A program made the translations under genes and the position numbers. From assembly GCA_025055595.1 (NCBI GenBank), contig JANWWU010000078.1:16257-80256 (forward strand): a stretch of 64,000 nt of DNA, given 5' to 3'. The notes under the pieces are model-generated. The model had not been told where the DNA came from and ran no database searches. It worked only from the letters and a program-made list of their open reading frames with translations. Source of the stretch: Planctomycetota bacterium. GTDB lineage: Bacteria; Planctomycetota; UBA11346. Of the stretch, positions 2,338 to 60,100 are shown piece by piece (position 1 is the stretch's first letter; every line of letters begins with the position of its first letter).

Positions 2338-5268
<2,931 letters not shown>

Positions 5269-5336
5269 ACGGCACCTGCGGGGTTGTGTACGCTAGCGCA
5301 ACGACCAACATTGCCACCTGCATCGCCGAGCCGCGC

Positions 5337-27656: not shown

Positions 27657-27998
27657 CTAGCGGCGGCCGCGGCGCCGGCGCCAGTAGCGCACGGCGAGCG
27701 GCTCACCGATCAGCTCGCGCACCAGCAGCGCATCGCGCACGCGCGCGCGGTCCATCAGCAGCTGGCGCAGCCGCGCCGCGACCGGCTCCGGCGGCGCGAC
27801 GATCGTCGCCGGAACCGCCGGACGGGCGGAGGCCGGCGCCAGCTCCGTCGCCGCCGGACGCGCGCGCGGCGCCTCGGCCGGCGGGCGCTCGGCGACATCC
27901 TCGGCGGACGGCAGCTCCGGCTCGCGCGACCGCTCCCGCGGCTCGGCCTCGCGCTGCAGCTCCTCGAGATCGCGCAGGATGTCGTCGAGCAGGGTCAC
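27657..27998 (-). CDS. small acidic hypothetical protein (113 aa) in the flotillin operon, at the position of yqfB in the B. subtilis yqeZ-floA-yqfB operon
   Basis: GTG start (verified by reverse-complementing the region) overlapping the floA stop. [22 protein letters not shown]... has normal composition with a Pro/Ala-rich middle. Confidence 0.45.
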
Positions 27999-29038
27999 GA
28001 CGGACCGGGCGTCTTCTCAGTCGGCTTGGGCTGTGGCGGATGTGCGATCGCCGTCCGCATCTCGGTGTCGGCCTGCAGGTTCTTCAGCATGTAGTAGTCC
28101 ATGATCCCGAGCTGGCCCTTGCGGAAGGCCTCGGCGATGGCGAGCGGGATCTCGGCCTCGGCGAGCACAACCTTGGCGCGGTTTTCCTGGACCAGGGCGA
28201 GCATCTCCTGCTCGCGCGCCACCGCCAGCGCGCGCTGCCGCTCGGCCTCGGCCTGCGCTACCCGCTTGTCAGCCTCGGCCTTGTCGGTGCGCAGGCGGGC
28301 GCCGACATTCTCGCCGACATCGACATCGGCGATATCGATCGACAGGATCGAGAAGGCGGTGCCGGCATCGAGCCCGCGCGCCAGCACCGTCTTCGAGATG
28401 CGGTCGGGATTCTCCAGCACCTCCATGTGGGTGCGCGCCGAGCCGATCGTCGTGACGATGCCCTCGCCGACGCGCGCGACGATCGTCTCCTCGGTCGCGC
28501 CGCCGACCAGGGTATCGATGTTGGTGCGCACGGTGACGCGGGCCTTGACCTTGAGCTGGATGCCGTCGCCGGCGATCGCATCGATCGTCGTGCGCCCGTC
28601 CTTCGGGCTCGGAACATCGATCACCTTCGGGTTGACCGAGGTCTGCACGGCATCGAGCACATCGCGGCCGGCGAGGTCGATGGCGCAGGCGCGATCGAAG
28701 GAGAGATTGATGTTCGCCTTGTTGGCGGCGATCAGGGCGTTGACCACGCGCATGACATGCCCGCCGGCGAGGTAGTGCGCCTCGAGGCGGTCGGTGCTGA
28801 TGTCGAGGCCGGCCTTCTTGGCGGTGATGCGCGCGGTGACGATCACCGTCGGATTGACCTTGCGGAAGCGCATCATGAACAGCTGCAGCAGGCTGACCGG
28901 GGCGTTGCTGGTCAGGGCCTGGAACCAGAGGCTGAACACCGAGGCGATCGCCATCACGATGGCGAGCACGATCGCGCCGATGACCAGCCAGACGATGGTG
29001 ACTAAATCGAACAAGGCGAGCGTCGTCAGGTACGGCAT
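27995..29038 (-). CDS. floA: flotillin-like protein FloA (SPFH domain, UPF0365/YqfA family)
   Basis: The internal Met [31 protein letters not shown] gives an N-terminal TM segment. This is followed by an SPFH core and a C-terminal coiled-coil [21 protein letters not shown]. The upstream 59 codons of the track ORF are junk. Confidence 0.85.
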
Positions 29039-29048
29039 GCAGTCCTCG

Positions 29049-29609
29049 TCAGGGATGGTGGTCGTCGTCAGGGAGCGCCATGACGTGTACCACCGGGCCA
29101 TCGAAGTCCAGGATGCGCACGCGCGCCCCGCGCCTGCCCCCGCCCTGCACCTGCACGTCGATGGCGACAGGGCCGCGGGGGCCAACGAAGCGCGCGCGTC
29201 CCGTCGGGTAGGCATCCGTCAGCAGCTCGCCCTCGGCTCCCGGACCGAGCCCTCCCTGGTCGGCGAGGCGGCGAGCCCCGGTCGCCTCCGTGATCTCCGC
29301 CGGCAGGACGAGCAGCGGGTGGCGCTGCATGCGTCGCAGGCCGAAGCGCAGGACGAGCGCAAGCAGCGCCGGCGCGACGACGACGAAGGCCCAGCCCGTC
29401 AGCGTCGAGACCTGAAAGGCCATGACGATGGCGACGACCGCGCTGATGGCCGCCGCGAGCGCCAGCATCCCCCAGCTGACGATGAAGCACTCGAGGACCG
29501 CGAGCACGCCAGCAAGCAGCAGCAGGGCCACCGCCCAGCCGAGGGCCGCCAGCGGCGGCAGACCGGGCGCCGCGCTGGTCGTCTCGGTCGCCAGCCAGGC
29601 CGGGATCAT
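29049..29609 (-). CDS. NfeD-like membrane protein, short form (YqeZ/YuaF-like flotillin partner)
   Basis: 186 aa. It has three TM helices, then an OB-fold-like C-terminus [47 protein letters not shown]. The ATG overlaps the stop of the long NfeD gene (ATGA). Confidence 0.75.
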
Positions 29610-31111
29610 GCGCGCGCTTCCGCCTCGACCGGGCGGACGACGAGCTCGCCGAGCTGGGCGCCGACGATCTCGACCTCGCTGTCGGCCGGCACCAGCACGC
29701 CGTGCTCGGCGACCGCCGGTACATCCCGGCCATCGATGATGACGAAGCCGCTTGGGCGCAGCATCGTCCGCGTGCGCACGCGCTTGCCGATCAAGGCTCG
29801 GGCCTGCTGTTCGAGGTCCCCGGCGGTCGTCGCATCGATCGCCGCCTCGCTCGCCAGCACGCGCATCGCGCGGGTTCGCGGCAGGGCGGCGATGGCGACG
29901 ATGGCGCCGATCGTCAAGACGGTCAGCGCCAGCAGGCTCTGGATCAGGGCATGGCCCATCGCGCCGCGCCAGCGCTCGTCGCCGATCTCGAACTGGAAGG
30001 AGTCGGGCATGAAGGCGAAGATCATGCCGCCGCCGATCGCGAGCAGGCCCGCGATCAGCAGCAGGCCGCCAGTGGGGAAGAGGAAGAACTCGGTGATCAG
30101 GGCCAGGATGCCAAACGCGATCAGGATGATCTCGGCGGCCCCGACGAGGTCGAGCCAGTACTGGCAGACGAGGAACAGCAGGCCGCAGACTGCGGCGCCG
30201 ATCAGGAAGAGGCCGCCGCTCGGCATCTTGAACTCGAGCAGCAGCAGCAGCAGCGCGAGGCCGGCCAGCAGCGGCGCCCAGCCGCCGAGGGTCTCGGCGA
30301 TCAGCTCGTGGCGACTGGGCAGAAAGCGCTGCACCGCGCTCGGCTCGACGCCGAGCAGGCGGTAGACCTCGTCGAGGTCCTTGACCAGCGCCGTCGCCAT
30401 CCCCTCGGCGACGGCTTCCTTGGCCGTGTAGGTCAGCAGGCGATCCTTGCCGAGGATCAGCACGCCGTCCTCCTTGCGCAGGCCGGGGCGGGCGGCGAGA
30501 AAGGCCGGCAGATCGTCCTCGATCACGAAGTGCTGCCGACCGTCGATGTCGAAGCGCCACAGCTCCTGATTGCGCGCGGTCATCTTCTGCAGCTTGGCCT
30601 GGTCCCAGCCATTGTGCTGGCCGGCCTGGCGCAGCAGGGCGCGGACGGGGCTCTCCAGCTTCTCCGGGGCGTACTTGATCGGCTCCGCCGGGTCCTGGCT
30701 GACAAAGATGACGCCGATGTCCCCGATGTAGGCCTGATCGGTCATGTAGATGCGGCGGTGCCCGTAGGCGAGCAGGGCGCCGGCGCTGTAGGCGCGCGTG
30801 TCGATGAAGGCGATCAGCTCGGTGTCTTCGTCGCCGACGGCGAGGATGCGTTCGAGCATGCGCATCGCCGCGTCGAGGGCGCCGCCGTCGGTGGCGATGC
30901 GGCAGACGATGTAGCGCGGGCTGAGCGCCAGCGCGCGATCGACGGCGCGCTCGAACTGCCCGGCGCGATGGTCATCGATCGCGCCGTCGATCGGGATGAA
31001 GGCGACGAGCGGCTTCCCGCCGGCGCCCTGGCCGCCAGCAGGCGTGGCTTCCCCGCCTTGCCCGAACGGCGCGACAGCAACCAGCAGCAGGCCTAGCAGC
31101 CAGTGCAGCAT
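29606..31111 (-). CDS. NfeD-like membrane-bound serine protease (ClpP-class), long form
   Basis: Signal peptide MLHWLLGLLLVAVAPFG. A ClpP/crotonase-like protease domain (IVCRIATDGGALDAAMRM, SAGALLAYG). A multi-TM region and a C-terminal OB-fold. Confidence 0.8.
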   Translation of the reverse strand: MLHWLLGLLLVAVAPFGQGGEATPAGGQGAGGKPLVAFIPIDGAIDDHRAGQFERAVDRALALSPRYIVCRIATDGGALDAAMRMLERILAVGDEDTELIAFIDTRAYSAGALLAYGHRRIYMTDQAYIGDIGVIFVSQDPAEPIKYAPEKLESPVRALLRQAGQHNGWDQAKLQKMTARNQELWRFDIDGRQHFVIEDDLPAFLAARPGLRKEDGVLILGKDRLLTYTAKEAVAEGMATALVKDLDEVYRLLGVEPSAVQRFLPSRHELIAETLGGWAPLLAGLALLLLLLEFKMPSGGLFLIGAAVCGLLFLVCQYWLDLVGAAEIILIAFGILALITEFFLFPTGGLLLIAGLLAIGGGMIFAFMPDSFQFEIGDERWRGAMGHALIQSLLALTVLTIGAIVAIAALPRTRAMRVLASEAAIDATTAGDLEQQARALIGKRVRTRTMLRPSGFVIIDGRDVPAVAEHGVLVPADSEVEIVGAQLGELVVRPVEAEARA

Positions 31112-32243: not shown

Positions 32244-34646
32244 TCACTCATCGACGGCACCCGCGGTGCGCGCCTCGATGCCGTAGCGCTGATGCTCCTG
32301 GAACTCGGCGTAGAGCTCCACCGGCACCCCGGCGGCGGCGCCGAAGCCGCCGCTGGCGGCAGCGCGCACCCCGGCATCGCTGTGCTGCATCGCCTTCTTC
32401 AGGATGTCGACGGCGGCGCGTGACGTCGGATCGATGCGGCCGATGGCGAAAACGAAGGCTGCGCGCAGCGCTGGATCGCTCTCCAGTTCGGCATCTTGGG
32501 CCTGATAGATCTCGGTGATGCGGGCGATGTGGGCGCGCGCCGCCTCGCCGGCCGGGCCGGCGGCGATCCGCGCCAGCGCGCGCAGCGCCGCGCTGCGGAT
32601 CGCGTTGGAGCGCGCCGGCAGGGTCTCGACCAGCGCCGCGACCGCGCCGCCGAGGTCGAGCGGCGTGCGCCGCGGGTCGGGCTGCTGCAGGGCGAGCGCC
32701 GCGCGCAGGGCGATGTCCTCGGCGACCGCCTGCTGAGCATGCGGCGGCGGCGCGTCCTTGAGCGCGGCGTCGATCGCATCGCGCAGCTCGACCGCGTCAT
32801 AGGGACGGCCGACGAACTTGCTCGCCGGCCGCCGCGCGACGAACTCCGCCCGCACCTTGTCGGCCTGCTCGGGCTGCTCGGGCAGGGCGACGAAGATCGG
32901 TACACCGGCGGCGCGCGGATCGGCGCCCAGCATGTCGATCAGCCCGGCAGCGTTCTGCTGCGGAACGTCGAGCTCGGCGCCGTTGTGGTCCTTGACGGCA
33001 GTCTTGAGGTCGCCGGCGACGATGATCGCATCCTTGAGCGGTCCCGAGGCCAGGCGGTTGAGCGCCTCGAAGCCATCGGCCGCTGTGATCGCGACGAAGC
33101 CCTTGCTGGTCAGCGCCGCGCGCGCGGCATTGCGCGAGCGGGGATCGGGATCGACGACGAGGACCACGCGCATGCCCCAGGCCCCGAGGGCTTCGGCGAG
33201 CAGGGGCACCACCTTCTCGGCGCCAGGGAAGGCATCGGGATCGAGGCTCGCCAGCGTGATCGCGGCCTGATAGCGGATCAGCTTGTCGGGGTGCTCGAGC
33301 GCGGTGATCAGCACGGTGCCTGGCTTGGCCGGGGACAACGGCTCGTTGGCTGCCGGGAACAAGGGCTTGCCGTGCACGAGCTCGCGCTCGGCGAGCACCC
33401 GCATCAGCACCAGCGCCGCATCGTGACGCTCGGAGGCCAGCGCCTGCTGCAAGGCGCGGCAGAGGTTCTCGGCCCCCGACATCCGCAAGCGCTGCTGCAG
33501 CTCGGCGAGCGCGGTGGCCCGCGCCGAGAGGCGCTCGAGGGCGTCCTCGCCGCTAGCCGGGGCCAGCGTGCGCTCCTGCGCTAGCAGCGAGCGCTCGACG
33601 ATGTCCGCCAGCTCGCCGGCATAGACCGCCGTCAGCACCGGCAGGAAGCCGGCCTCGCCCGGCTCGACCGCCATCCCCGCAAACAGCAGGTCTTCGGCCA
33701 TCAGCTCGTTCCAGGCGTAGGATGGCGCGCGCGTCCAGGCCAGGCGGGCCGCGCCCTCGGCTTGCGGATCCCAGCGCCACAGCAGGCGCTCGGCGGCGAT
33801 CATCTCGTCGCGGATCTCCGGACCGCCACGGAAGTAGCGGAGGGCCTCCGCGATGTGCGCTTCGGACAGCGTCGGCACTTCGGGCAGCTGGGCGCGCTGA
33901 ACGATCTTCTCGATCGCCCGATCGATCGCCTGCATCGTCACCGGCGCCAAGCCTTCGCGCAGCCGCACGCGCAGCAGGGCCGGCAAGGCCCGCGGGTCGC
34001 CGATATCGCCGAGGATCAGCGACACCGAGCCGATCTGCCGCTGGTCATCGCTGCTCAGCGCCGCGGTCAAGGGCAGCACGGCGCGCGCGCCCATCCGCGT
34101 CAGCACCAGGCGGCACTGGCTGCGGCGCCGCTCCTGGGGGTTGTCGGTCAGCGCCCAGACGAGCTCGGGCACCGCCCACGGGCCGACAGCAGTCAGCTCG
34201 CGCATCGCCGCGATCTGCTCTTCCTCGCTCTGCTCGAGCTTGCCGATCAGGATGCGGATGTACGCCGGATCGCGCCGCAGCTGCTTCTGGTAGATGCGCG
34301 CCCGACGCAGCAGCTCCTTGAGCGGCTCGGCCAATGGGTCCTGCTCCTGCATCTGCAGAATCAGCGCATCGCCGCAGGCGAGGTAGAACTCGTAGGCGTC
34401 TTTATTGTCGGGCTCGAGGGCGAGGGCGGTGCGGAAGGCCAGGGCGGCCTCACGATAGCGGCCGGCGCGATACTGCTTGACGCCCTCGGCGAGGTACGAG
34501 CGCACCTGATCGGCGACCGGGAAGTGCGGATCGGCCCGTCGCGGGCTCGCTTCGCCGGCCGCCAGCGGCGCCCCGAGCAGAGCCGCTAGCAAAGCCGGAA
34601 CCAGGGCGCGCGACAACGACCCAGGCGCTACACGCAACGAACGCAT
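32244..34646 (-). CDS. secreted/membrane-anchored HEAT-repeat (PBS lyase-like) protein with an embedded degenerate receiver-like domain
   Basis: 800 aa from the internal Met MRSLRVAPGSLSRALVPALLAALLGAPLAAGEA (signal-like). This Met is preceded 5 nt upstream by GGAGG. The upstream 707 codons of track ORF 32244..36767 have low GC3 and overlap real plus-strand genes. The REC-like segment is MRVVLVVDPDPRSRNAARAALTSKGFVAITAADGFEALNRL...AIIVAGDLK...IFVALP...KFVGRPYD. Confidence 0.7.
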   Translation of the reverse strand: MRSLRVAPGSLSRALVPALLAALLGAPLAAGEASPRRADPHFPVADQVRSYLAEGVKQYRAGRYREAALAFRTALALEPDNKDAYEFYLACGDALILQMQEQDPLAEPLKELLRRARIYQKQLRRDPAYIRILIGKLEQSEEEQIAAMRELTAVGPWAVPELVWALTDNPQERRRSQCRLVLTRMGARAVLPLTAALSSDDQRQIGSVSLILGDIGDPRALPALLRVRLREGLAPVTMQAIDRAIEKIVQRAQLPEVPTLSEAHIAEALRYFRGGPEIRDEMIAAERLLWRWDPQAEGAARLAWTRAPSYAWNELMAEDLLFAGMAVEPGEAGFLPVLTAVYAGELADIVERSLLAQERTLAPASGEDALERLSARATALAELQQRLRMSGAENLCRALQQALASERHDAALVLMRVLAERELVHGKPLFPAANEPLSPAKPGTVLITALEHPDKLIRYQAAITLASLDPDAFPGAEKVVPLLAEALGAWGMRVVLVVDPDPRSRNAARAALTSKGFVAITAADGFEALNRLASGPLKDAIIVAGDLKTAVKDHNGAELDVPQQNAAGLIDMLGADPRAAGVPIFVALPEQPEQADKVRAEFVARRPASKFVGRPYDAVELRDAIDAALKDAPPPHAQQAVAEDIALRAALALQQPDPRRTPLDLGGAVAALVETLPARSNAIRSAALRALARIAAGPAGEAARAHIARITEIYQAQDAELESDPALRAAFVFAIGRIDPTSRAAVDILKKAMQHSDAGVRAAASGGFGAAAGVPVELYAEFQEHQRYGIEARTAGAVDE

Positions 34647-34650
34647 CGGG

Positions 34651-34655
34651 CCTCC
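34651..34655 (-). promoter_or_regulatory. Shine-Dalgarno-like GGAGG, 5 nt upstream of the ATG of the HEAT-repeat gene
   Basis: The minus-strand sequence reads tacGGAGGcccgATG. Upstream of it the frame loses GC3 bias. Confidence 0.4.
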
Positions 34656-34808
34656 GTACTGCAGATCCAGGCGTATGGTTCGAAGTGGCATCGTGCGTGT
34701 CCCTTCCGGCGGCATCAACCCCTGCGCGCGCCAGCGTGCGCGAAGTGTATGACGAGCCCGCGACGCCGCCGCGTCTTGCACCCCCGCTGCCCGGTCAAGA
34801 TACGCGCC

Positions 34809-35705
34809 ATGCCGCGTCGAGAAGGGCAGTCGACGGGGTGGCGGTGGACGCTGGCCCTCTGCGCGCTGCTGGCCGGCGTCGGCCTCAGCCTCTTCGCGCT
34901 GGCCCTCCGCCCGTGCCGCTTCGTCATCGAGCCTGGGGAGTCCGTGGCCTGGGAGCTGACGGTTCGCTCCGCCGCCAGCGGCGAGGCGACGGCCGCGGCA
35001 CGCGCCACCCGCATGGTGATCCGACTGCTCGGGCTGGGCCCGGAGCCCGAAGCGGTCGCCTGGTTCGCTGGGCCGAGCGCGGAGCGGGCCAGCGCCTTCC
35101 ACCTCGCGATGCTGCCCGTCGACGGGGCGCTGCGCCTGCGCACGCCCGAGGGGCGCATCGCGTTGAGCGGGCCCCACTGCCTGGGCTTCGACTTCAACCT
35201 GCTGCCGCTGCCGCCGGGGGCGGAGCAGAGCTGGCGCGCGAGCGTCGTCTGGGCGCCCTTGCCGCCAGACAAGCAGCTGGTGCCGGTCGAGGTCCGCCGC
35301 CTGCGCGCCAACGCTTGGCCCGAGTTCCGCTGCCTGTTTCCGCCGAGCATCGAGTGGGTGGATCCGCACAGCGGACGCTATCGGCAAGTGCGGGGTCTCG
35401 CCGCCACCTACCGCTTCGATACGCTGCGCGGGCTGCCGGTGTGGGCGCTCGTGCGCTGGACGTTGCGCGAGGAGCTGCCGCCGCCGCAGGGCTTCGCGTC
35501 CCGCGACTACGAGTGCGAGCTGCGCTTCCTCGAGCGGCGGAGGCATGGGGAGCCGGCGGCGCTGCGGCAGGCCGCGGCCCTCGCCCAGCGCGTGCACGAG
35601 GCGCGAGCCGCCGGCCAGCGCCCGGCGCTCGCCTGGCTCGCCGCCCTGCAGGCCGCCGGCGAGCCGTTCGCCTCCCTCGCCGGCGCGAGCCCGGAGCGCC
35701 TCTGA
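34809..35705 (+). CDS. hypothetical secreted protein (298 aa)
   Basis: Internal Met MPRREGQSTGWRWTLALCALLAGVGLSLFALAL (signal-like). It is divergent from the HEAT-REC gene. The stop abuts the ATG of the next gene. Confidence 0.55.
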   Translation: MPRREGQSTGWRWTLALCALLAGVGLSLFALALRPCRFVIEPGESVAWELTVRSAASGEATAAARATRMVIRLLGLGPEPEAVAWFAGPSAERASAFHLAMLPVDGALRLRTPEGRIALSGPHCLGFDFNLLPLPPGAEQSWRASVVWAPLPPDKQLVPVEVRRLRANAWPEFRCLFPPSIEWVDPHSGRYRQVRGLAATYRFDTLRGLPVWALVRWTLREELPPPQGFASRDYECELRFLERRRHGEPAALRQAAALAQRVHEARAAGQRPALAWLAALQAAGEPFASLAGASPERL

Positions 35706-36776
35706 ATGCGCTGGGCAGTGGCGCTGCTGATGCTGGCGGCGCTCTCCGCCATGGAACGCGCGATCATCGACGATCCGCGACTGGCGCTCGACTGGCTGCC
35801 GGATCGCCCGTCCCAGCAGGCCTGGCGCGCGCTGTTCGATCCGCATGCGGTGTGGCCCGAGCGCGATGTCGACCTGCTGGCGAGCGCTCACGGCGAGCGG
35901 TTGACGACCTTGTGGGCCGCTCGCCTGTGGTACCGCGGCGAGCCGTGGACGCGGCGCGAGCACGAGCCGATCAACCTGCGGCGCTGGCGCGTCGTCGACC
36001 GCGCCGTGCGCCTGGCGATCATCCGCGACCTGCGCTGGCGGCGCGATCCGCGCCTCGTCGCGGTGCTGCTCGGCTTCCTGCAGCGCGAATCCGAGGACGT
36101 CGGCCTGGTGGTCAACGCCCTGGCCGCGCTGTCGCTGATCGACCCGCCCGCCGGACGCCAGGCGGCGCTGCGCCTCGCCGATCCGCGTCGCCCCGATCGC
36201 CTGCCAGCCGCCGGCCTGCCGGGGGCCCGCAGCGCGGCCCTCGCCCTCGCCCTGGAGAGCGGGCCGCTCGACGAGCCGCTGCAGGCCGCGCTCTCCTGGG
36301 CCCTGCTGACCGCCGACGGCGGCGAGCGCATCGCCGCCCTCGGCCGGCTGCCGCGCGGCGCGGTCCCCGAGCTGTGCGGTGCGGCGCTGCAGCGCCTGCT
36401 CGAGCCCGCGCAGCGGGGCGCGCTGCGCGACGAGGATCTCGCGGCCGGGGTGCTGATCTGCGCGCGCCTCGAGGGCCCGCTCGGCGAACGCGTGCTGCAG
36501 GCGCTGGGCACGCTGGCGGTGGCGGCGCCGCGCGAGCTCGCCTGCGCCGCCGCCACCGCCTTGGCGCGCGTCGTCAGCTGGCGCCACGCGATCGATCCCC
36601 AGCCCCTGCTCGAGCGCTTCCAGCGCGACCCCGATCCCTCGGTGCGGCACGCGTTGGCCGCGGCCCTGGTGCGCATCGCTCCCGATCGCCTGGCGTCGCG
36701 CCGCGAGGCCGCGGCCTGGGCGGTGCTCGCAGCCCACCGCCTGGCCCTGCAGGACTGGGACTGGCATCGCCCATGA
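35706..36776 (+). CDS. secreted HEAT-repeat protein
   Basis: MRWAVALLMLAALSAMERA is signal-like. It is followed by repeated Ala/Leu-rich HEAT-like helical pairs. The stop overlaps the rsmB-like ATG. Confidence 0.6.
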   Translation: MRWAVALLMLAALSAMERAIIDDPRLALDWLPDRPSQQAWRALFDPHAVWPERDVDLLASAHGERLTTLWAARLWYRGEPWTRREHEPINLRRWRVVDRAVRLAIIRDLRWRRDPRLVAVLLGFLQRESEDVGLVVNALAALSLIDPPAGRQAALRLADPRRPDRLPAAGLPGARSAALALALESGPLDEPLQAALSWALLTADGGERIAALGRLPRGAVPELCGAALQRLLEPAQRGALRDEDLAAGVLICARLEGPLGERVLQALGTLAVAAPRELACAAATALARVVSWRHAIDPQPLLERFQRDPDPSVRHALAAALVRIAPDRLASRREAAAWAVLAAHRLALQDWDWHRP

Positions 36777-42423: not shown

Positions 42424-43068
42424 TCAGGCCGAGGGCGGCACCGTGCCCGGCACGAACGGCACGAAGCGCACGCCGCCGAGGCAAGAGCGCCGTCCGCCCT
42501 CGTAGAGCCAGAGCTCCTGCTCCTCCGGCGGCCCGAGCGGCATCACCAGCCGGCCCTGCGGCGCCAGCTGCGCCAGCAGCGCCGGCGGCACGGTAGCGGC
42601 GGCGGCGGCGACATGGATCGCGTCGTACGGCGCCGCCGCCGGCCAGCCGCCGTGGGCATCGGCGTGGATGACGACGACCGGCAGGCCCTGCAGGCGCTGG
42701 CGGGCGCGCTCGGCGAGATCGGCGATGCGCTCGAGCGCGTAAACCGCGCCGCCCGGCGACACCAGCTCGGCGAGCAAGGCGGCGGTGTAGCCGGAACCGC
42801 AACCGACATCGAGCACCCGCATGCCGGGAGCGAGGCGCAGGGCGGCAAGCATGCAGGCGACGACGCGCGGCTGGCTGATCGTCTGGCCGCAGCCGATCGG
42901 CAGCGCGCCGTCGGAGTAGGCGAGCGCGCGCGCGTCATCGGGGACGAAGCGCTCGCGCGGCACCGCCGCCATCGCCGCCAGCACCCGCGGGTCGCGGCAC
43001 TCGCTGAGCTGCTCGCGCACCATGCGCTGGCGCAGGCGGGCGTAGATCGGATCGTCGTCCGCCGTCAT
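42424..43068 (-). CDS. pcm: protein-L-isoaspartate O-methyltransferase
   Basis: GQTISQP signature and the SAM motif VLDVGCGSGY. Confidence 0.9.
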   Translation of the reverse strand: MTADDDPIYARLRQRMVREQLSECRDPRVLAAMAAVPRERFVPDDARALAYSDGALPIGCGQTISQPRVVACMLAALRLAPGMRVLDVGCGSGYTAALLAELVSPGGAVYALERIADLAERARQRLQGLPVVVIHADAHGGWPAAAPYDAIHVAAAAATVPPALLAQLAPQGRLVMPLGPPEEQELWLYEGGRRSCLGGVRFVPFVPGTVPPSA

Positions 43069-43083: not shown

Positions 43084-43392
43084 TCACGGTGCGGCGCCAG
43101 ATCCGCTCGGCGCGCTGAGCCCCAGCTTGGCGATGATGAAGGCGATCACCTGTCCGATCGTCTCCATCCCGGGGCCGCCCGGCAGCGTCTCCTCGAAGTT
43201 GATGCCGAAAGCGTCCTCGAGGTCCATCGCGACCTCGGCGATGTCGAGGTGGTTGTCGGTGATGTCCGGCACCAGGCGCTGGCCCTCGTAGTCGAAGCCG
43301 TTGGCCAGGCCGTCGGCGAGCGGCGGCAGCTTGTGCAGCTTGTGCGTGAGGATCTCGAGGACCTCACTGCGAACGCGGTCGACATCCATCAT
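43084..43392 (-). CDS. acyl carrier protein-like protein lacking the phosphopantetheinyl-Ser (DSL replaced by NHL)
   Basis: ACP four-helix pattern: RVRSEVLEILTHKL ... DITDNHLDIAEVAMDLEDAFGI ... METIGQVIAFI. In the neighbouring canonical ACP the corresponding segment is DLGADSLDQAEITMDLEDAFAV. The start overlaps the fabF stop (ATGA). Confidence 0.6.
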   Translation of the reverse strand: MMDVDRVRSEVLEILTHKLHKLPPLADGLANGFDYEGQRLVPDITDNHLDIAEVAMDLEDAFGINFEETLPGGPGMETIGQVIAFIIAKLGLSAPSGSGAAP

Positions 43393-44654
43393 GGGCGGTA
43401 GCGACGGAAGATCAGCGACGCATTATGGCCGCCGAAGCCGAGGTTGTTGGAGAGCGCATACTCGATCGCTGCCGGGCGCGCCTGCTGCGGCACATAGTCG
43501 AGATCGCATTCGGGGTCGGGATGCTGCAGGTTGATCGTCGGCGGCAGCACGCCGTGCTGCAGGGCGAGGATGGTAGCGATCGCCTCGACCGCCCCGGCGG
43601 CGCCCAGGGTGTGGCCCGTCATGCTCTTCGTCGAACTGACGGCGAGCTTGTAGGCATGGGGTCCGAAGACCTGCTTGATCACCGCCGTCTCGGTCTTGTC
43701 GTTGAACTCCGTGCTCGTGCCGTGCGCATTGATGTAGCCGATCGCCTCGGGCGGCAGCCCGGCGTCGGCGAGCGCCATCCGCATGCAGGCGATGCCGCCG
43801 GCCCCGCTCGGGTCGGGCGCCGTCTCGTGATAGGCATCGCCCGTGCAGCCGTAGCCGACGATCTCGGCGATGATCCGCGCGCCCCGCGCCTGGGCATGCT
43901 CCAGGCTCTCGAGGACTAGGATGCCGGCGCCCTCGGCCATCACGAAGCCGTCGCGGTCCTTGTCGAAGGGGCGGCTGGCCGCGCCCGGGTCGTCGTTGCG
44001 CTTCGACAGCGCGCCGATCGCGTTGAAGCCGGCGACCCCAAGGTGGGTGATCGGCGCCTCGCTGCCGCCGCACAGGGCAGCGTCGCAGAGCCCGTGCCGG
44101 ATGTGGTGGAAGGCCGCCCCGATGCAGTGGCTGGCGGTCGCACAGGCGGTGACGATCGCGTAGTTCGGGCCCTTGGCACCGTAGACGATCGAGATGTCGC
44201 CGGCCAGGCTGTCGACGATCATCTTCGGTACGAGCAGCGGGCTGACGCGCGAGGGGCCGCGCTCGAGCATCGTCCGATGTTCCTCTTCGATCGTCGCCAG
44301 ACCGCCGATGCCGGCGCCGACGATGACCGCGACGCGGAAGGGGTCGCGCCACGCCACCTTGCCATCGGCCGTGCGCGGCAAGCCGGACATCGCCATCGCC
44401 TCGGCCGCCGCCTTGAGCGCCAGCAGGACGAAGCGATCCTTGCGGCGCAGCATCTTGCGATCGCCGTTGGCCAGCGTCAGGTTGTCGATCGGCACCTCGC
44501 CGGCGAAACGCGTCGCGTGCTGGCTAGCGTCGAACTGGGTGATCATGCGGATGCCGTGGCGGCCCTGGCGCAAGGCATCCCAGAACGAGGGGACATCGGT
44601 GCCATTGCACGCGACCACCCCCATGCCGGTGATCACGACCCGACGCTGGCTCAT
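43389..44654 (-). CDS. fabF: 3-oxoacyl-[acyl-carrier-protein] synthase II
   Basis: RRVVITGMGVV, the Cys in AIVTACATASHCI, and the His-His pair (HGTSTEFND ... GHTLGAAGA). The start is taken at MSQRRVVITG; the track start at 44690 adds 12 aa. Confidence 0.9.
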   Translation of the reverse strand: MSQRRVVITGMGVVACNGTDVPSFWDALRQGRHGIRMITQFDASQHATRFAGEVPIDNLTLANGDRKMLRRKDRFVLLALKAAAEAMAMSGLPRTADGKVAWRDPFRVAVIVGAGIGGLATIEEEHRTMLERGPSRVSPLLVPKMIVDSLAGDISIVYGAKGPNYAIVTACATASHCIGAAFHHIRHGLCDAALCGGSEAPITHLGVAGFNAIGALSKRNDDPGAASRPFDKDRDGFVMAEGAGILVLESLEHAQARGARIIAEIVGYGCTGDAYHETAPDPSGAGGIACMRMALADAGLPPEAIGYINAHGTSTEFNDKTETAVIKQVFGPHAYKLAVSSTKSMTGHTLGAAGAVEAIATILALQHGVLPPTINLQHPDPECDLDYVPQQARPAAIEYALSNNLGFGGHNASLIFRRYRP

Positions 44655-44686
44655 CCCCCCGCGATCCGCTCCCGCCGTCACCTCGC

Positions 44687-45070
44687 TCACGATCCCGCCG
44701 GCGACGCACCGCCCTGGCGCTTCTTCGCTTCCTCCTCCTGCAGGACGCGATCGATCGCCTGCACGATGTCGCCGATCGTCTTCAGCTGTTGAGCCTTCTC
44801 CTCCTCGATGCGCACGGCGAAGGCGTCCTCGAGATCCATCGTGATCTCGGCCTGGTCGAGGCTGTCAGCGCCGAGGTCGTTGACCAGGTCACTGGCATCG
44901 GTGATGGTGTTGACATCCTTCGACAGTCGGTCAGCGATGATCTGCTTCACCTTGGAGCGGATCTCGTCGATGCTCGGGCGGCTGGAGGGGGTGCTGTTGG
45001 CGGAAGCGCTCACGGTCTGGTCTCCGACATGCGAGTTGCAGGCATTGTTGGTCGCGGACGACAGCGTCAA
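44687..45070 (-). CDS. acpP: acyl carrier protein (canonical DSL motif) with N- and C-terminal extensions
   Basis: IDEIRSKVKQIIADRL...DLGADSLDQAEITMDLEDAFAV...IGDIVQAI. The true start is probably the internal GTG near 45013 (VSASANS...). The track start is a TTG and adds a Ser/Thr/Asn-rich leader. Confidence 0.8.
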   Translation of the reverse strand: MTLSSATNNACNSHVGDQTVSASANSTPSSRPSIDEIRSKVKQIIADRLSKDVNTITDASDLVNDLGADSLDQAEITMDLEDAFAVRIEEEKAQQLKTIGDIVQAIDRVLQEEEAKKRQGGASPAGS

Positions 45071-45116: not shown

Positions 45117-45716
45117 ATGCGCGCCTGGACCCCGCTGCTCGCGCTGCTGGCCGCCTGCACTCCTTCGCCTGCGCTGCCGCCGCCGGGCACCAGTCAGCCG
45201 GTGGTCATCCACCTCTGGAGCGCGGAAGACCAGCCGCCTTCTCGCTTCGTCGTCCAGCGGATGGTGCAGGAAGGCGTGCGCCTCGACCGCCTGCTGCTCG
45301 AGGGGGTCAGCGCGCGCCTCGTCGACCGCGATCTCGACTGGGCGCTCAGCGCGCCGCGCGGTTCCTGGCGCACCAGCGAGGACCGTCTGCTGCTCGACGG
45401 TCCCGTGCGCCTCGCTGGCACCTGGCAGGGCTCGCCGCTGCTCGGCCGGGCCGCGCGCGCGAGCTGGCAGCGGCGCGGGCAAGCCGTCGAACTGCATGAC
45501 CTCGAGCTGTGGAGCCGCGGGCAGCGGCTCTACGCGCCCCTGCTCGTCATCCATCGCCAGCGGCAGATCGAGGCCCCGCGCGGCATCCGCAGCGAGCCGC
45601 TGCCGGCGCACGCCGAACTGCTGCTGGCGACCCTGCCCGTGCCGCTGCCAACCTTCATTCCGCCGGTCGACGACGCAGGGCCTCGGCGCGCGCCAGCGAG
45701 CGGCGCTCGCCGGTGA
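45117..45716 (+). CDS. hypothetical lipoprotein
   Basis: MRAWTPLLALLAACTPSPA contains the lipobox LAAC. The gene is divergent from acpP. Confidence 0.5.
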   Translation: MRAWTPLLALLAACTPSPALPPPGTSQPVVIHLWSAEDQPPSRFVVQRMVQEGVRLDRLLLEGVSARLVDRDLDWALSAPRGSWRTSEDRLLLDGPVRLAGTWQGSPLLGRAARASWQRRGQAVELHDLELWSRGQRLYAPLLVIHRQRQIEAPRGIRSEPLPAHAELLLATLPVPLPTFIPPVDDAGPRRAPASGARR

Positions 45717-53382: not shown

Positions 53383-54993
53383 TCACCGCTTGGGTGGCGT
53401 CTCCACCGCTTGCCGCAGCAGGGTGCCCGCCAAGGCATCGAGGGCGCCGCCGGGAGCGCTGACCATCACCTGGGGCGTGATCTGCACCCGACCCTCGGCG
53501 ACCAGCTTGAGCAGTTCGAGCTGGGTCACGGCCTCCTTGCCCAGGGCCTCGACCATCGCGCGGTAGGCGGCAGCGCGGCCCTCGCCGGTGATGCGCTGGT
53601 AGTCGGCCTCGCCCCGCGCTTCGGCAGCGCGCGCCTGCGCCTGCTGCTCCTTGACTTTCACGGCATAGGTCGCCTGCGCCAGGTTGCGCTGCTGCTCGGC
53701 TTCTTCCTGGGCCTTGACGAAGGCGGCGCGCGCCTCTTCAGCCTTGCGCTGCTCGGCATAGAGCGTCTGCTGGTTCTTGGCGACCTCGGTATCGGTCTGC
53801 GTCGCGAGCAGCTTGCGCCCGGCATCGGTGGCGTCGAGATGGATGTTGCCGACATAGACTCCGTCGCAGGTGACGAAATAGCGCGCGAGCTCCGCCTTGA
53901 CCCGCTCGGTGGCGACGCGCTCGACCTGGCTGCGCGCATTGACGAACTCCAGCGCATTCATGCCCTCGGCGACATTGCGGAAGATCGCGCGCACTGTCGG
54001 CAGGATGATCCGCGCTTCCAGCACTTCCAGCTCCTCGTCTTCCTGCTCGTCGCGCATGTGGCGATCGGGATCGCCGAGCAGGGCGACGAGCTGCGGGGCA
54101 TGCGCGGCCTCGACCGCGCAGACGACGCGCACATCGACGGGGAAGGAGAAGCCGTCGCGAGAGCGTACCGTCACCGACCAGTCCTCCTGCTGCGCCGCCG
54201 CGGCAGCGACGCCCTTGCCCGCGCTGCGCGGGCCCTGCTGCTGGTAGGTGTAGACGCGCTGCGTGGTCTTGACGATGGTCGGAGCATAGGCGTGGGTGTT
54301 GATGTAGTAGGCGCCCGGCGGCAGCGGCTCGCGCCAGATCCCGCGGCAGGTGCGGGGCACCAGCGGCACGCCGTTCACCAGCGGGCTTTCGGACGGAGCC
54401 GGAGCGCCCGTGCGTGCAGTGATCACCGCTACCGTACCGGGAGCGACGATCAAGGCGTCGATCGTCTGGATGTCATGCAGCGCCGGGTTGTAGCGATAGG
54501 TGCCGGGCGTCAGTACGGTGGCCTGCGGCCCGCGCTGGCCGCCACCCGCAAAGAAACGCTCGGGATCGAGCATCTCCGTCGCCGAATCCCAGGGCTTGGC
54601 GTAGATCTCGCCCGACGGCAGCGGCTCACCGTCGTGCGCGGTGACGAAACCGAGCTTACCGTGCTCGATGACCATCACCGGCACCTCCTGGACTTCATAG
54701 AGCAGCGGGAAGTAGCCGAAATGCCAGCCTGGACCGAGGATGCGCGCCTGCGGTCCTTGCTCTCCGTGACGCGCGACGATGGCCCCGGGAGGTAAGGGAT
54801 CGCCGAAATACTTGATGACGACGCCAGTGCGATCGGCGGCGATCACCACCGAGGAAGCGAGCGCCAGCCCGGCGAGGAATACCAGCGCGGCGACGGCGTA
54901 GAGCGCGCCACTCAACCACACCGACAAGCGCGCGACGGCGGCATACGCCGCGATCACCGTCGCGAGGATGGTGAACAAAACCAAAAAGAGCAT
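53383..54993 (-). CDS. SPFH/band 7 domain protein, long flotillin-like (FloT/YqiK-like)
   Basis: Two N-terminal TM helices, an SPFH core, and a long EA-rich coiled-coil (AEQRKAEEARAAFVKAQEEAEQQRNLAQATYAVKVKEQQAQARAAEARGEADYQ). Confidence 0.8.
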   Translation of the reverse strand: MLFLVLFTILATVIAAYAAVARLSVWLSGALYAVAALVFLAGLALASSVVIAADRTGVVIKYFGDPLPPGAIVARHGEQGPQARILGPGWHFGYFPLLYEVQEVPVMVIEHGKLGFVTAHDGEPLPSGEIYAKPWDSATEMLDPERFFAGGGQRGPQATVLTPGTYRYNPALHDIQTIDALIVAPGTVAVITARTGAPAPSESPLVNGVPLVPRTCRGIWREPLPPGAYYINTHAYAPTIVKTTQRVYTYQQQGPRSAGKGVAAAAAQQEDWSVTVRSRDGFSFPVDVRVVCAVEAAHAPQLVALLGDPDRHMRDEQEDEELEVLEARIILPTVRAIFRNVAEGMNALEFVNARSQVERVATERVKAELARYFVTCDGVYVGNIHLDATDAGRKLLATQTDTEVAKNQQTLYAEQRKAEEARAAFVKAQEEAEQQRNLAQATYAVKVKEQQAQARAAEARGEADYQRITGEGRAAAYRAMVEALGKEAVTQLELLKLVAEGRVQITPQVMVSAPGGALDALAGTLLRQAVETPPKR

Positions 54994-57122: not shown

Positions 57123-60100
57123 CTATTTGACGACGCGCGCCCAGCCGCCGACACCCGTGGTGCTGACGCCGAAGGGCGCGAAAGGCGGTGTCCCTTCTTC
57201 CGTCAGCAAGTCGTAGTTGAATTCATAGATGCGTTGCGGCTCCGAATACACCGCTGGACTCTGCCCATTCCAATGTGCTGCCGGCACGGAGTACCCATAC
57301 ATCCCTACTTTGAACACCTGCAGGTTACCGTTGCGATCCGGACGACGATAGACGAAATTGTTGATGATCGACCGCCACTGGCCGCTGTTGTCGACGAAGC
57401 CGAAGGGCGTCGTGCCGTAAGTCTTGAAGCTGTCGAGCAGGAAGGCCTGCGTGTAACGGCGCGTATCCATGACCACGAGGCTGCCAAGGTACATCAAGGC
57501 GCAGCCATTCCAGTTCTCGAGCAAGAGGAAACTGTCGACGAAAGCCGCGGTCTGCCCCTCGGCGAGACGGTCGCGGGTCGTCGGCAGATTGTGCGTCGCG
57601 ATCGCGGCATTGTATTCGGTATTCGCGGCCCGAGGGCCGAAGGAGCTCATCGTCGCCAGCGTTCCGCTGCCGGTGACGCTCGGCGGGCCGCTGACATTGC
57701 TCACTGTCAACCCCGGAATCTGCGCATTCCCATCCAGCCAGGCATTTGATAAGAAGGTGATCGTATCCCCCATCAGGGCAACGGGCGTGAAGCGGTAGGC
57801 CACCGCGCCCTTGAGCGTGGTGCGGAAGCGATCGACATTGCAGTTGCCTTGCACATAGAGGGCATGCGGGGTGACGATCGTCGTCTTCCCCAGGCCGAAC
57901 TCGGGGATCGGAGTCACTTGCCAATCGTAGGCCGTCGTCGGGCCGATCGGGCGGCTGGCCGCGACACTGCGGGTGCCATCGTAGCCCCAGTCGAAGCGGT
58001 GGGCGTTGACGATGCGAACTCCGTGATGGAACTGCTGTGGCTTGAGCGGCAGGTCTTCCTTGAGATCGGCCGCCGCATAGGGCTGCAGGCGGTGGCCACG
58101 CGCGCTGTTCAGCCAAGCATAGGAGCCCTGCGGTGGCGGCGGGGGACTGCGCAGGCTCGCGTCATTGCCGATCTCCGGCGGGGCATCGCCCATATCTGCG
58201 CGGGAGTTCGGCAAGGGACTCAACCAGTGCGGGCTCCAGGGATTGATGCCCGTCGTGTCGGCACCGGCAGGCAGGCGCTCCGACTTGAGCCAGGGATTGA
58301 GATTCGGATTCCACGGATAACGATTGGTGCGCGCAGCATAGATCAGGCCAGAGAAGCGCTCTCGCAGCACATAATCCTGCGCCGGTGGCGAAGGATCGAC
58401 ATCCATGTGCCCCGGCAAGCGATCCGCCATCGCCTGGCTGATCGTCCGCGAACGCAGGTAGTTCTGGAGGGCCTCGATATCGAGCGTCAGCAGCGTGGTC
58501 TTGGCGAAGGCTTCGCGGATCGTCGTCTTTGTGAAGTTCTCGGCGGCGCTGGTCACCGGGTCCTTCTCGACGAGGTCGCGCTCGACCGTCGGCAAGTGCG
58601 GACTGGCATTCGGGCGCCGGACATCCCACCAGCGCGACTGGCTCCAGAACTCGCGGGCATTCCAGATCCAATCTTCGCTGGCGATGCGCCGCCCGGTCGC
58701 GGGATCGGTCCAGGTGAAGAAGTCTTCGGTGATCTCGCGCGTACCGAACCACACCTGATATTGGCTGGCCAGGTAGCGCCCCATCAGATCTTGACCGCTG
58801 CTGTCCGTATCCCAGTCCGTCGCATCGATGACATCGTCGGGGAACGGCAGGCTGGTCTGAATCCGCAAGTTGGTGAAGGTCGCCGTCACGACCTGGTTGA
58901 CATCCCCCGACTGAATGGCTGGACCGATCAGCAGGTGGCTGCCCCAGTTGCTGATGTCGAGCGTTCCCGGAACGCTCGTCCAGGTCGTGCCATTGGTCGA
59001 ATACGCGAAGGAGAGCGTCGATCCGCTCTGGCTGATCCGCAACCACAGACCGGTGATCGTGCTCGGTACGGAGATGTCGTCGGTCAGCCGGAAGTTGCCG
59101 GTCTGCAGACCGGCATTGCCCGTCGGATTGACGGTGCTGCTGGTCCAGGTAGTGCTGCCGGGATGCACATCGGGACGCCAACTGCGGGTCAACGGCCAGG
59201 TCGTCGGGCTGTTGCCTGCCCAGCTCGCCGGCCACAGCGCGCCTTGCGTCGGCACATACTGCGGCACCGCCGCGCTCAACCAGCTCTGGCTGTTGCTGAT
59301 CCAGCCGTTCAAGTCGAAGGTGATCGGCCGGCTGCTGCGCTCGATGCTGAATGTTAGACCGCCGTTAGAGACGAAGTCAGGCACGGTCGGATTGGCAGGA
59401 GTCGCCGGATCCGGGCAAGCGCTGTCGGCCGGCGCTGAGGGGGTGGGGCCAGTCCACGGCGATGAGGGGGTGGCGGTGTTGATCTCCGTGATCGAGAGGC
59501 CGGTGATCGCGGTGAGATCGGCGGCGGTGGCGTTCACGACCGTCCCATTCTTGTTGATGCGCAGCTGCCCGGCCGTGATCCAAGCCGTCGTCGGGCCGCC
59601 GACGCTCAAGGTTTGGGTCTCCGAGCTTCCCGACACCCAGGCGCCGTAGCTCGCGTTGTACAGCGTGTAGCGCAGCTGCGTGCGGTTGCCGCTGCTGCCG
59701 CCGAACAGGTACCAGCGATTGTCTGCAGGCGGCGTTCCACCCGTTAGGTAGCTGGTATTGATCTGGATCTGCCGGTTGTCGATGCTCGCCACGGTATACT
59801 TAGTTGTGCCGGTCGCCGCGCTGTAGATGCGCAGGTAACGATTGTGGTCGGTGCCATCGGCATCATTGATGTCATCGAACGGCGCGACATGATTCTGTAG
59901 CTGCACGGTCAGCACTTGCGTCGCCATGCGATACTTGCGCTTGTTGTACCAGGCGGTGCGCGTGCCTTGGAAGGTGCCGATGCTGAAGGGATCGAGGATC
60001 GTCCAGATCTTGCCGCCACCGACATCCTTGCTCATCGGCCCGCTGTAGGGCGTCGGCTGCTGGTTCCAAGTCACTGCCGAGGTCTGCAAGCCGCTGACTT

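Follow-up and report, generated by a model that had tools for sequence, protein, structure and literature searches.

In type II fatty-acid synthesis one small carrier protein docks transiently on a dozen enzymes, and how this docking traffic is tuned in cells is poorly understood. The locus described here raises the question of what a protein that resembles such a carrier, but lacks the site for its prosthetic group, could be doing beside one of these enzymes. The locus lies on the minus strand of the window, namely, the whole stretch of 64,000 nucleotides that we analysed from contig JANWWU010000078.1 of a Planctomycetota bacterium. It comprises three co-directional genes, in the order acpP (ACP1), fabF and a Ser-less paralogue of the acyl carrier protein (ACP), which we refer to as ACPx.

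The first two genes are conventional. ACP1 (44687..45070, minus strand) encodes a canonical acyl carrier protein, AcpP, as had been recognised from its DLGADSLD site: it carries the motif NDLGADSLD, matches PF00550 at E 1.6e-12 and scores 78.4 bits against NF002148, whose cut-off is 71. The serine of its DSL motif is Ser70 of the maximal open reading frame, with the codon AGC at 44861-44863. The start of this gene is uncertain, as the frame has no ATG; the candidates are TTG 45070, which opens the maximal frame, and GTG 45013, adopted in the public gene call of 108 aa, and its relatives measure 77-82 aa. The second gene (43389..44654, minus strand) encodes beta-ketoacyl-ACP synthase II, FabF, with 421 aa from ATG 44654, a TIGR03150 score of 595.8 bits against a cut-off of 493.75 bits, and 50% identity to E. 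coli FabF. Across 43 loci the Cys/His/His triad of FabF is invariant, and a Lys or Arg is found at each of K65, R68, K69 and K128 (E. coli numbering), whereas R127 and R206 are not conserved. By its score and these residues, FabF is a working KAS II whose basic docking patch is conserved.

The frame of FabF can be extended upstream to GTG 44690, and it would then overlap the ACP1 stop codon (as GTGA). However, FabF homologues align only from residue 13 on, and the public call is also of 421 aa; ATG 44654 is therefore favoured, and the junction between acpP and fabF is most likely a 32-nt gap. Thus, of the two overlapping ATGA couplings that the sequence-only reading had claimed, only the one between fabF and ACPx stands, where the ATG of ACPx overlaps the TGA of fabF at 43389-43392. 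These two genes are read in different frames. A scan for sigma-70-like promoters and intrinsic terminators around the operon gave none, which is uninformative for a high-GC planctomycete.

The third gene, ACPx (43084..43392, minus strand), encodes 102 aa, and its positional GC (gc1/gc2/gc3 of 0.69/0.39/0.91) is typical of real genes in the window. That its product is homologous to ACPs, as had been proposed, is borne out at three levels. First, ACPx and ACP1 share 34% identity in BLASTP (E 3e-12). Second, HHalign aligned the ACPx family with the AcpP family of the clade over 77 columns, with a probability of 99.0% and E 3e-18. Third, the AF2 model of ACPx (mean pLDDT 85.7; pTM 0.77) is predicted to adopt the four-helix-bundle ACP fold, except that helix III is not predicted to be helical, and the best 50 matches of a Foldseek search of the PDB were all ACPs, with probabilities of 0.99-1.00 and target-normalised TM of 0.7-0.82. 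Although homology to ACP is clear by profile methods, ACPx falls below all curated ACP thresholds: no Pfam family matches it, PF00550 included, PF00550 gave no significant match in 31 of 31 members (best E 0.11), and the NCBIfam ACP models reach residues 39-89 alone, with scores of at most 27 bits, the best of them being 26.6 bits against a 66-bit cut-off.

Compared with AcpP (PF00550, TIGR00517), ACPx has in common the predicted four-helix fold, the acidity (pI 4.3; 17 Asp+Glu against 6 Lys+Arg), the helix II motif and the location in an acpP-fabF operon. Unlike AcpP, it has no attachment Ser, its loop between helices I and II is longer, with a conserved FDY motif, and where AcpP has its helix III region it carries a conserved loop that contains LPG and two inserted residues, the LPGxxG loop being predicted with high confidence in the model. 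KLHxLP, FDY, the LPG loop and Thr45 are all conserved in ACPx and absent from AcpP. The ancestor of ACPx was the housekeeping acyl carrier protein of this lineage of planctomycetes.

The residue of ACPx at the position of the phosphopantetheinylated Ser is His48 (codon CAC, 43249..43251, minus strand). The earlier observation of His at this position, with no neighbouring Ser, holds in every alignment made: BLASTP, HHalign and a profile search against solved ACP structures all pair His48 with the DSL serine, the register is consistent over four independent alignments, and in none of them does a Ser or Thr of this gene fall at the site. Among 105 family members, column 48 is His in 48, Pro in 45, Glu in five, Gln in two, Asp in two, and Arg, Thr or Gly in one each, and it is Ser in none; it is the most variable column of ACPx helix II. 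The attachment position is thus shown, for the sequences sampled, to tolerate almost any residue but Ser. The Ser residues that ACPx does have (S9, S93, S96 and S98) are neither conserved nor near the site. Across the 105 members the protein has no conserved Ser or Cys at any position; of its hydroxyl residues, Thr45, which lies three positions before His48, and Thr78 alone are conserved. From this we infer that ACPx is an obligately apo, non-carrying ACP.

What ACPx has kept is helix II, the recognition helix (residues 48-62, HLDIAEVAMDLEDAF; 43207..43251, minus strand), which DSSP assigns as helical over these residues in the model. Its columns show 90-100% conservation and differ little from those of ACP1 helix II across the clade, with D50, E53, D57, E59 and D60 at 99-100%, and its motif LDxxExxMxLEDxFG almost matches that of the co-resident AcpP; in the same genomes, the consensus helix II is [H/P]LDIAEVAMDLEDAFGVNFEE for ACPx and SLDIAEIMMDLEDAFGVKLEE for ACP1. 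The helix II variants of ACP1 and ACPx are not mirrored within genomes, which rules out gene conversion as the source of the shared helix and argues for parallel selection. The residues of E. coli AcpP that contact FabF are Asp35, Leu37, Asp38, Val40, Met44, Glu47, Glu48, Glu53 and Asp56 (PMC7138838), and their counterparts in ACPx are, in the same order, N/D47, L49, D50, A52, M56, E59, D60, N65 and E68, which are identical or conservative with respect to ACP1 except for N65. Helix II of ACPx therefore appears to be an acidic recognition helix, and the conservation of these contact residues makes plausible the regulatory, decoy or scaffold partnership with FabF that had been suggested for this gene.

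All 111 homologues of ACPx, at 45-100% identity, have intact reading frames, and 21 columns are invariant in a 31-sequence alignment. The order acpP-fabF-ACPx recurs in every related locus examined (>40), including loci reached via ACP1 and not via ACPx, and that of the most divergent member whose full context was checked; because this sample is a single, fairly narrow lineage, with FabF 65-81% identical, the synteny is of limited weight. The median dN/dS of ACPx is 0.355, similar to those of FabF (0.268) and of the gene for protein-L-isoaspartate O-methyltransferase (PCMT; 0.313) that lies 15 nt downstream of ACPx (42424..43068, minus strand; NF001453 score 199.4 bits, cut-off 188), omega being only rough because dS is near saturation and the genome is high in GC. 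These values suggest that ACPx is under purifying selection, and its dN of 0.31, against 0.11 for ACP1, shows that it evolves faster. The gap between fabF and ACPx is 23 nt or less in most loci of what we term the 'DNH' subtype, and it is 100-400 nt in some relatives, where translation of the two is then not tightly coupled. That all three genes are co-translated had been overstated, the overlap here being confined to fabF and ACPx. The genome scan also brought in, through the pattern EDAFGINF, the Nitrosospira/Nitrosovibrio loci L041-L052, which we rejected as members of the family, as they hold ordinary Ser-containing ACPs (LGLDSMD) after a different ketosynthase.

What role, then, could an ACP that cannot be loaded have? 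Our leading proposal, to which the sequence data lend something just short of an even chance, is that helix II lets ACPx dock on FabF, or on other enzymes that are clients of ACP, where it would be a non-productive modulator, brake or subunit. Helix II of ACPx would dock on the ACP-binding surface of such enzymes and, since without a phosphopantetheine arm substrate delivery is impossible, ACPx would occupy the dock non-productively. The most probable target would be FabF, which is predicted to be co-transcribed with ACPx and, in this genome, translationally coupled to it. Once on the dock, ACPx would modulate or slow condensation, or else stabilise the enzyme as a subunit, but would not carry substrate. 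If ACPx does regulate FabF, it would represent a protein-mimicry layer in the control of bacterial lipid synthesis, and it would provide a ready scaffold for the design of ACP-site inhibitors. More generally, a paralogue that keeps the docking helix and cannot be loaded would offer a natural, competitive way to probe the ACP interactome from within a core acpP-fabF operon.

Three considerations temper this proposal. First, helix II serves every ACP client, and the target could instead be AcpS, FabD, FabH, PlsX, Lpx or a non-FAS partner. Second, contacts between ACP and ketosynthase are weak and short-lived even when the prosthetic arm is present (PMC7138838), and a mimic with no arm may bind too poorly to matter, unless further contacts come from the loops particular to ACPx. 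Third, an inhibitor that is co-expressed constitutively looks wasteful. A more ambitious version, which we regard as doubtful, takes ACPx for the first bacterial ACP that is genetically fixed as obligately apo, with Ser avoided against loading by AcpS; such a protein would dock on FabF, on another FAS II enzyme or on AcpS, and would set fatty-acid elongation flux or chain length in this lineage of uncultured Planctomycetota. Bolder still, in the 'DNH' subtype the deamidation-prone Asn47-His48 at the helix II cap and the adjacent PCMT could form a damage- or age-sensitive switch on this docking surface.

Our search of the literature for bacterial Ser-less, pseudo- or phosphopantetheine-independent ACPs returned nothing relevant, and the only precedent found was the mitochondrial ACP (mACP) of apicomplexans. 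In Plasmodium falciparum mACP the Ser is replaced by Phe, and in the Toxoplasma homologues by Cys or Gly (Falekun et al. 2021, PMC8547962). The Ser-less Plasmodium protein works purely by protein binding, with the LYR protein Isd11 as its partner, and the replacing residue, Phe113, matters for this binding (PMC8547962). Both mACP and ACPx have a non-modifiable residue in place of Ser, and both keep the helix II Glu residues at +5 and +11, which are E53 and E59 in ACPx. However, mACP is eukaryotic, organellar and the sole ACP of its compartment, having arisen after FASII and PPTase were lost from it, whereas ACPx is bacterial and lies beside a canonical AcpP and FabF in one operon. Moreover, the replacing residue matters in Plasmodium, whereas in ACPx its column is the one that varies most, and no LYR-type partner was identified within the window. 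We therefore treat mACP as a functional analogy for ACPx, and not as a sign of family membership.

Other known systems resemble ACPx in part. In E. coli, apo-ACP still binds enzymes that depend on ACP, and it inhibits one of lipid synthesis (PMC3896788). The likeness is one of function: in E. coli the apo form arises transiently or abnormally from the ordinary ACP, whereas ACPx has a gene of its own. The AcpB of Enterococcus faecalis keeps its Ser, is acylated and constitutes the acyl-ACP ligand of the repressor FabT. As a second ACP whose task is to regulate fatty-acid synthesis and not to serve bulk synthesis (PMC6509188), AcpB parallels the role proposed for ACPx, but for ACPx acylation through phosphopantetheine would be impossible. 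Nor does the locus correspond to a minimal type II PKS cassette (KS-alpha, KS-beta/CLF and ACP), since it holds a single ketosynthase, a FabF equivalog with its triad, and no cyclase, KR or other PKS genes were found among its neighbours, which are housekeeping genes.

The alternative that fares best, and that we nonetheless judge unlikely, is that ACPx is an adaptor or stabilising subunit for a non-FAS partner, in which case its adjacency to fabF would be a relic of duplication and a link to PCMT would be possible. This would be a moonlighting role of ACP of the kind in which mitochondrial ACP serves Isd11-Nfs1 and E. coli ACP binds SpoT, IscS and MukB. The Ser-less Plasmodium mACP works in this manner while keeping the two Glu residues shared with ACPx, the KLHxLP, FDY, LPG loop and Thr45 features of ACPx could form a new interface, and about 20 of 22 'DNH'-type loci have PCMT after ACPx. 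However, the only candidate partners conserved across the whole family are AcpP and FabF, and ACPx tracks helix II of AcpP closely, as is expected if their partners are shared. The adjacency of PCMT, for its part, is limited to one subclade, and about 21 loci of other types all lack it. Bootstrap support at the deep nodes of the FabF tree is 5-32%; the members of the 'DNH' group share a loop insertion and ILA/ILC characters, which suggests a single clade. The adjacency of PCMT is then probably one event with a few losses, and for this reason it was not counted as independent evidence.

An improbable alternative is that ACPx binds lipid or acyl chains non-covalently, or helps FabF to fold or stay soluble, without competitive docking. 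The ACP fold is capable of sequestering acyl chains, the helix III and pocket-entrance region is where ACPx has been remodelled into its conserved LPGxxG loop, and ACPx is tightly coupled to fabF; yet conservation peaks on the solvent-facing acidic helix II, not in the core or the pocket, and we found no precedent for such a role. Far less probable is that ACPx is still a carrier, modified elsewhere or by an unusual transferase. Thr45, present in 104 of 105 members, would be the candidate residue, and one member (P0057) has Thr at position 48 itself; but the partner of Thr45 in the alignments is Gly33, within the DLGADS loop, instead of the N-terminus of the helix. Moreover, 45 members have Pro at position 48, the protein has no conserved Ser or Cys, and no PPTase is known to use Thr. 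That ACPx is a degenerating, functionless duplicate of acpP, recent or pseudogenised, is scarcely credible despite its lost catalytic Ser, its scores below curated ACP thresholds and its raised dN, and is effectively refuted by more than 100 intact homologues reaching down to about 45% identity, the invariant columns, a dN/dS of about 0.35, a fixed position in all loci examined and coding-type positional GC.

Docking of ACPx on FabF or another ACP client remains our preferred reading. Within the window no other fab gene and no PPTase gene was found, the surrounding genes being housekeeping. An Rfam scan of the window gave no match. Divergent from acpP lies a gene for a putative lipoprotein of 199 aa and unknown function (45117..45716, plus strand), which has no Pfam or NCBIfam match and which, by tblastn, neighbours the acpP promoter region in most related loci, in the same position and orientation. 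Finally, ACPx proteins are labelled "acyl carrier protein" at NCBI (e.g. MCS6970830.1), and such labels inflate ACP counts and could mislead pathway reconstruction in these uncultured Planctomycetota.

The acpP, fabF and ACPx genes lie consecutively and in the same direction on the minus strand of the window, ACPx being the Ser-less paralogue of acyl carrier protein (ACP) encoded directly 3' of fabF. The product of the upstream gene (ACP1; maximal ORF 44687..45070) matches PF00550 (E 1.6e-12), scores above the cut-off of NF002148, an NCBIfam ACP subfamily model, and has the canonical site expected from the sequence-only reading, NDLGADSLD, with its Ser codon at 44861-44863. ACP1 has no in-frame ATG, its candidate starts being GTG 45013 and TTG 45070, and it has N-terminal (~20-40 aa) and C-terminal (QEEEAKKRQGGASPAGS) extensions, neither of which is found in the 77-82-aa AcpPs of its relatives. 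Judged by its sequence, the middle gene encodes a bona fide FabF: it scores 596 bits with TIGR03150, against a cut-off of 494 bits, it shares 50% identity with E. coli FabF, and its Cys/His/His triad is invariant across 43 related loci. ACPx itself occupies 43084..43392 (102 aa), and its ATG falls within the ATGA overlap with the fabF stop (43389-43392). Of the two ATGA couplings initially claimed, therefore, this one stands and the acpP/fabF one does not: an overlap, in this case GTGA, depends on FabF starting at GTG 44690, and the start at ATG 44654, 32 nt past the ACP1 stop, is favoured because alignments with homologues begin at residue 13 and the public annotation gives a protein of 421 aa.

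ACPx has no match in Pfam, and NCBIfam ACP models give only sub-threshold scores (up to 26.6 bits, spanning residues 39-89). Homology to ACPs, as had been proposed, was borne out by pairwise BLASTP against ACP1 (34% identity over 83 residues, E 3e-12) and by HHalign of two profiles, one built on 31 ACPx homologues and the other on 29 AcpPs of this lineage (probability 99.0%, E 3e-18, 77 columns, essentially full length). Both alignments, and a profile search through ACPs of solved structure, pair His48 (CAC, 43249-43251) with the serine of the DSL motif, such that PDITDNHLDIAEV corresponds to xDLGADSLDxxEL of ACPs. The substitution of the modifiable Ser by His, and the lack of a Ser next to it, thus hold; of the four Ser residues of ACPx, three belong to the variable C-terminal tail, the fourth being S9, and none is conserved. 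Cys is absent. A confident AlphaFold2 model obtained with 108 sequences (mean pLDDT 85.7, pTM 0.77) retrieved only acyl carrier proteins among its best 50 Foldseek matches in the PDB (probability 0.99-1.00, target-normalised TM up to 0.82). The sole clear structural departure in this model is the helix III segment, predicted as an ordered loop with a two-residue insertion (LPG).

The window comes from a metagenome-assembled genome (MAG) of an uncultured member of the Planctomycetota. A search of 5.8 billion proteins returned 111 ACPx homologues with identities of 52-100%, every one of them from Planctomycetota or an unclassified metagenome. Proteins identical to ACPx, from GCA_033583855.1 and GCA_026415635.1 (MCS6970830.1, MCX8039311.1, MDW8372076.1), are annotated as "acyl carrier protein" and nothing more. 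Exhaustive phmmer over 1.84 billion cluster representatives gave only 13 matches, namely, nine members of the ACPx family, three that turned out to be AcpPs of the same lineage, and a repetitive protein of 595 aa, probably a spurious match. The 31-sequence alignment has 21 invariant columns. At the attachment column, Ser is found in none of 105 members (H 48, P 45, E 5, Q 2, D 2, R 1, T 1, G 1); L49 and D50 are invariant, and E53, M56, D57, E59, D60, A61 and F62 are 98-100% conserved. That position 48 takes any residue but Ser, in a helix that is frozen elsewhere, suggests active avoidance of Ser there: the recognition helix being intact, AcpS would probably load it. Median dN/dS (pairwise Nei-Gojobori, 38 loci) is 0.355 for ACPx, 0.313 for the protein-L-isoaspartate O-methyltransferase (PCMT) encoded downstream, 0.268 for FabF and 0.124 for ACP1, values that are rough since dS is near saturation but that clearly depart from neutrality. 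Together with a positional GC (0.69/0.39/0.91) like that of real genes in this genome, these data dispose of a pseudogenised duplicate, a fate contemplated in the sequence-only reading. One distant member, P0116 (192 aa), has a C-terminal extension of ~100 aa with hydrophobic, transmembrane-like segments; this protein may truly be anchored in the membrane, or the extension may stem from read-through in gene calling.

The co-occurrence in relatives that the sequence-only reading proposed to look for was found in 37/37 planctomycete loci of a genome-collection scan, all with the order acpP-fabF-ACPx. The same order is present on metagenome contigs with divergent members, at the locus of a highly divergent member with Gly at position 48, on a marine contig whose AcpP is a weak match of the ACPx search, and in three loci found via ACP1 similarity, independently of ACPx. 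Thus, all sampled genomes of this AcpP lineage carry ACPx; the confirmed loci exclude P0119, the most divergent member, whose contigs contain only a partial upstream ORF. The fabF-ACPx spacing goes from the 4-nt overlap of the window up to ~400 nt, being at most 23 nt in most loci of the 'DNH' subtype (H-type, with Asn47-His48) and 100-400 nt in KDP-subtype loci L032 (5604-6001), L014, L016, L021, L029, L030 and L034. A pattern scan also matched L041-L052 (Nitrosospira, Nitrosovibrio; ~4770-6250), where a ketosynthase ~45% identical to the FabF of the window directly precedes an ACP whose helix II-III motif, EDAFGINF, resembles ACPx; this ACP contains Ser, and these loci represent a separate ketosynthase-ACP pair of ammonia oxidisers. 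The remaining genes of the window are housekeeping (SecA, Dxs, GyrA, MutS, LipA, NadC and others), with no further fab, PPTase or polyketide genes in it, so that ACP1 and FabF have the appearance of the primary FAS II pair rather than of part of a secondary-metabolite cluster.

Within the same genomes, the helix II consensus is DSLDIAEIMMDLEDAFGVKLEED for ACP1 and [H/P]LDIAEVAMDLEDAFGVNFEEA for ACPx. Variants of ACP1 (e.g. LDQAEIT, in the window) have no counterpart in ACPx, nor the reverse, which rules out gene conversion and points to parallel selection as what keeps the two helices alike. In the crosslinked E. coli AcpP-FabF structure, AcpP contributes Glu13, Gln14, Asp35, Asp38, Glu47, Glu48, Glu53 and Asp56, plus a hydrophobic patch of Leu37, Val40 and Met44 (PMC7138838). 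The aligned ACPx counterparts are N/D47, D50, E59, D60, N65, E68, L49, A52 and M56; compared with the AcpP of the clade itself, each of these, N65 excepted, is identical or conservatively replaced. In FabF, positions equivalent to K65, R68, K69 and K128 are K/R in 43/43 loci, and those equivalent to R127 and R206 are not conserved.

ACPx is, then, a paralogue under selection, with the ACP fold but no Ser at the site; it retains the helix by which the resident AcpP recognises its partners, and its gene is linked to fabF. As a tentative mechanism, and the one we lean towards, ACPx would dock on ACP-client enzymes, most probably FabF, where it could neither give nor receive acyl groups; it would occupy the dock unproductively, braking or tuning condensation, or else serve as a stabilising subunit. 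However, recognition of helix II is common to all ACP clients, such that the target could be AcpS, FabD, PlsX or a non-lipid protein; ACPs devoid of the arm bind weakly; and co-expressing an inhibitor seems costly. An adaptor role outside FAS, to which we give perhaps a quarter of our confidence, would draw on features conserved specifically in ACPx (KLHxLP, FDY, LPG and Thr45), which could build a new interface. It seems rather improbable that ACPx is a non-covalent lipid binder or a FabF helper. Besides Thr45 and Thr78, ACPx has no conserved residue with a hydroxyl group. Carriage via another residue, such as Thr45, is very hard to credit: Thr45 pairs with the Gly of DLGADS in the alignment, and no PPTase is known to use Thr. 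A decaying duplicate, contradicted by all conservation data, is the least believable of these readings.

The two main ACPx subtypes are DITDNHLD and DITKDPLD. In the window, the PCMT gene (42424-43068, minus strand) starts 15 nt downstream of ACPx, and it is directly 3' of ACPx in ~20/22 H-type loci, the window included (L001, L003-L009, L011-L013, L015, L024, L026-L028, L031, L033, L035, L061), and in none of the ~21 loci of other types (KDP, DNE, DDP, DND, DNQ). Asn-His dipeptides are prone to deamidation, hence the appeal of the pairing. However, support is lacking for the deep nodes of the FabF tree (5-32% bootstrap), and a shared loop insertion, among other characters, suggests that H-type ACPx forms a single clade; thus, the correlation may reflect a single event, PCMT adjacency being probably confined to one subclade. 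We take the pairing as a lead rather than as evidence.

ACPx is like canonical ACPs in fold and docking surface but lacks the phosphopantetheinylated Ser that defines the family, falling below all curated thresholds. Its nearest functional analogue is the Ppant-independent mitochondrial ACP of apicomplexans: that of Plasmodium has Phe for Ser, keeps Glu at +5/+11, and acts solely via Isd11-Nfs1 binding (PMC8547962). ACPx shares both Glu residues (E53, E59). The apicomplexan protein, however, is eukaryotic, binds a LYR protein and replaced the only ACP of a FASII-less compartment, whereas ACPx shares one operon with a canonical AcpP and FabF. Besides the Plasmodium protein, E. coli apo-ACP is a precedent for the proposed mechanism, as it is reported to inhibit glycerol-3-phosphate acyltransferase more strongly than holo-ACP does (reviewed in PMC3896788). 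We did not find a bacterial Ser-less ACP paralogue described in the literature, the coverage of which was incomplete, making this absence of evidence only. The significance of ACPx is bounded by an uncultured lineage, a narrow family and a mechanism that we infer; still, a conserved, obligate-apo ACP inside a core acpP-fabF operon should mildly surprise specialists, and the proposal is directly testable.

Some other genes of the window deserve mention. Divergent from acpP and directly upstream of it in most related loci (27-54% identity) is an ORF for a putative lipoprotein of 199 aa (45117-45716, plus strand); it has a signal peptide, its N-terminus is lipobox-like (MRAWTPLLALLAAC), and neither Pfam nor NCBIfam matches it. 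On the minus strand, a giant ORF of 2021 aa (57123-63188) has a GC3 of the coding type (0.80) and matches nothing in Pfam at E <= 1e-5, and a 1507-aa protein (32244-36767), without other annotation, has a weak C-terminal HEAT_2 repeat as its lone Pfam match. Adjoining genes for FloA (flotillin-like) and NfeD (27995-31111, minus strand) and a further Band_7/SPFH protein (53383-54993) place membrane-microdomain scaffold genes in the same region as this lipid-synthesis operon.
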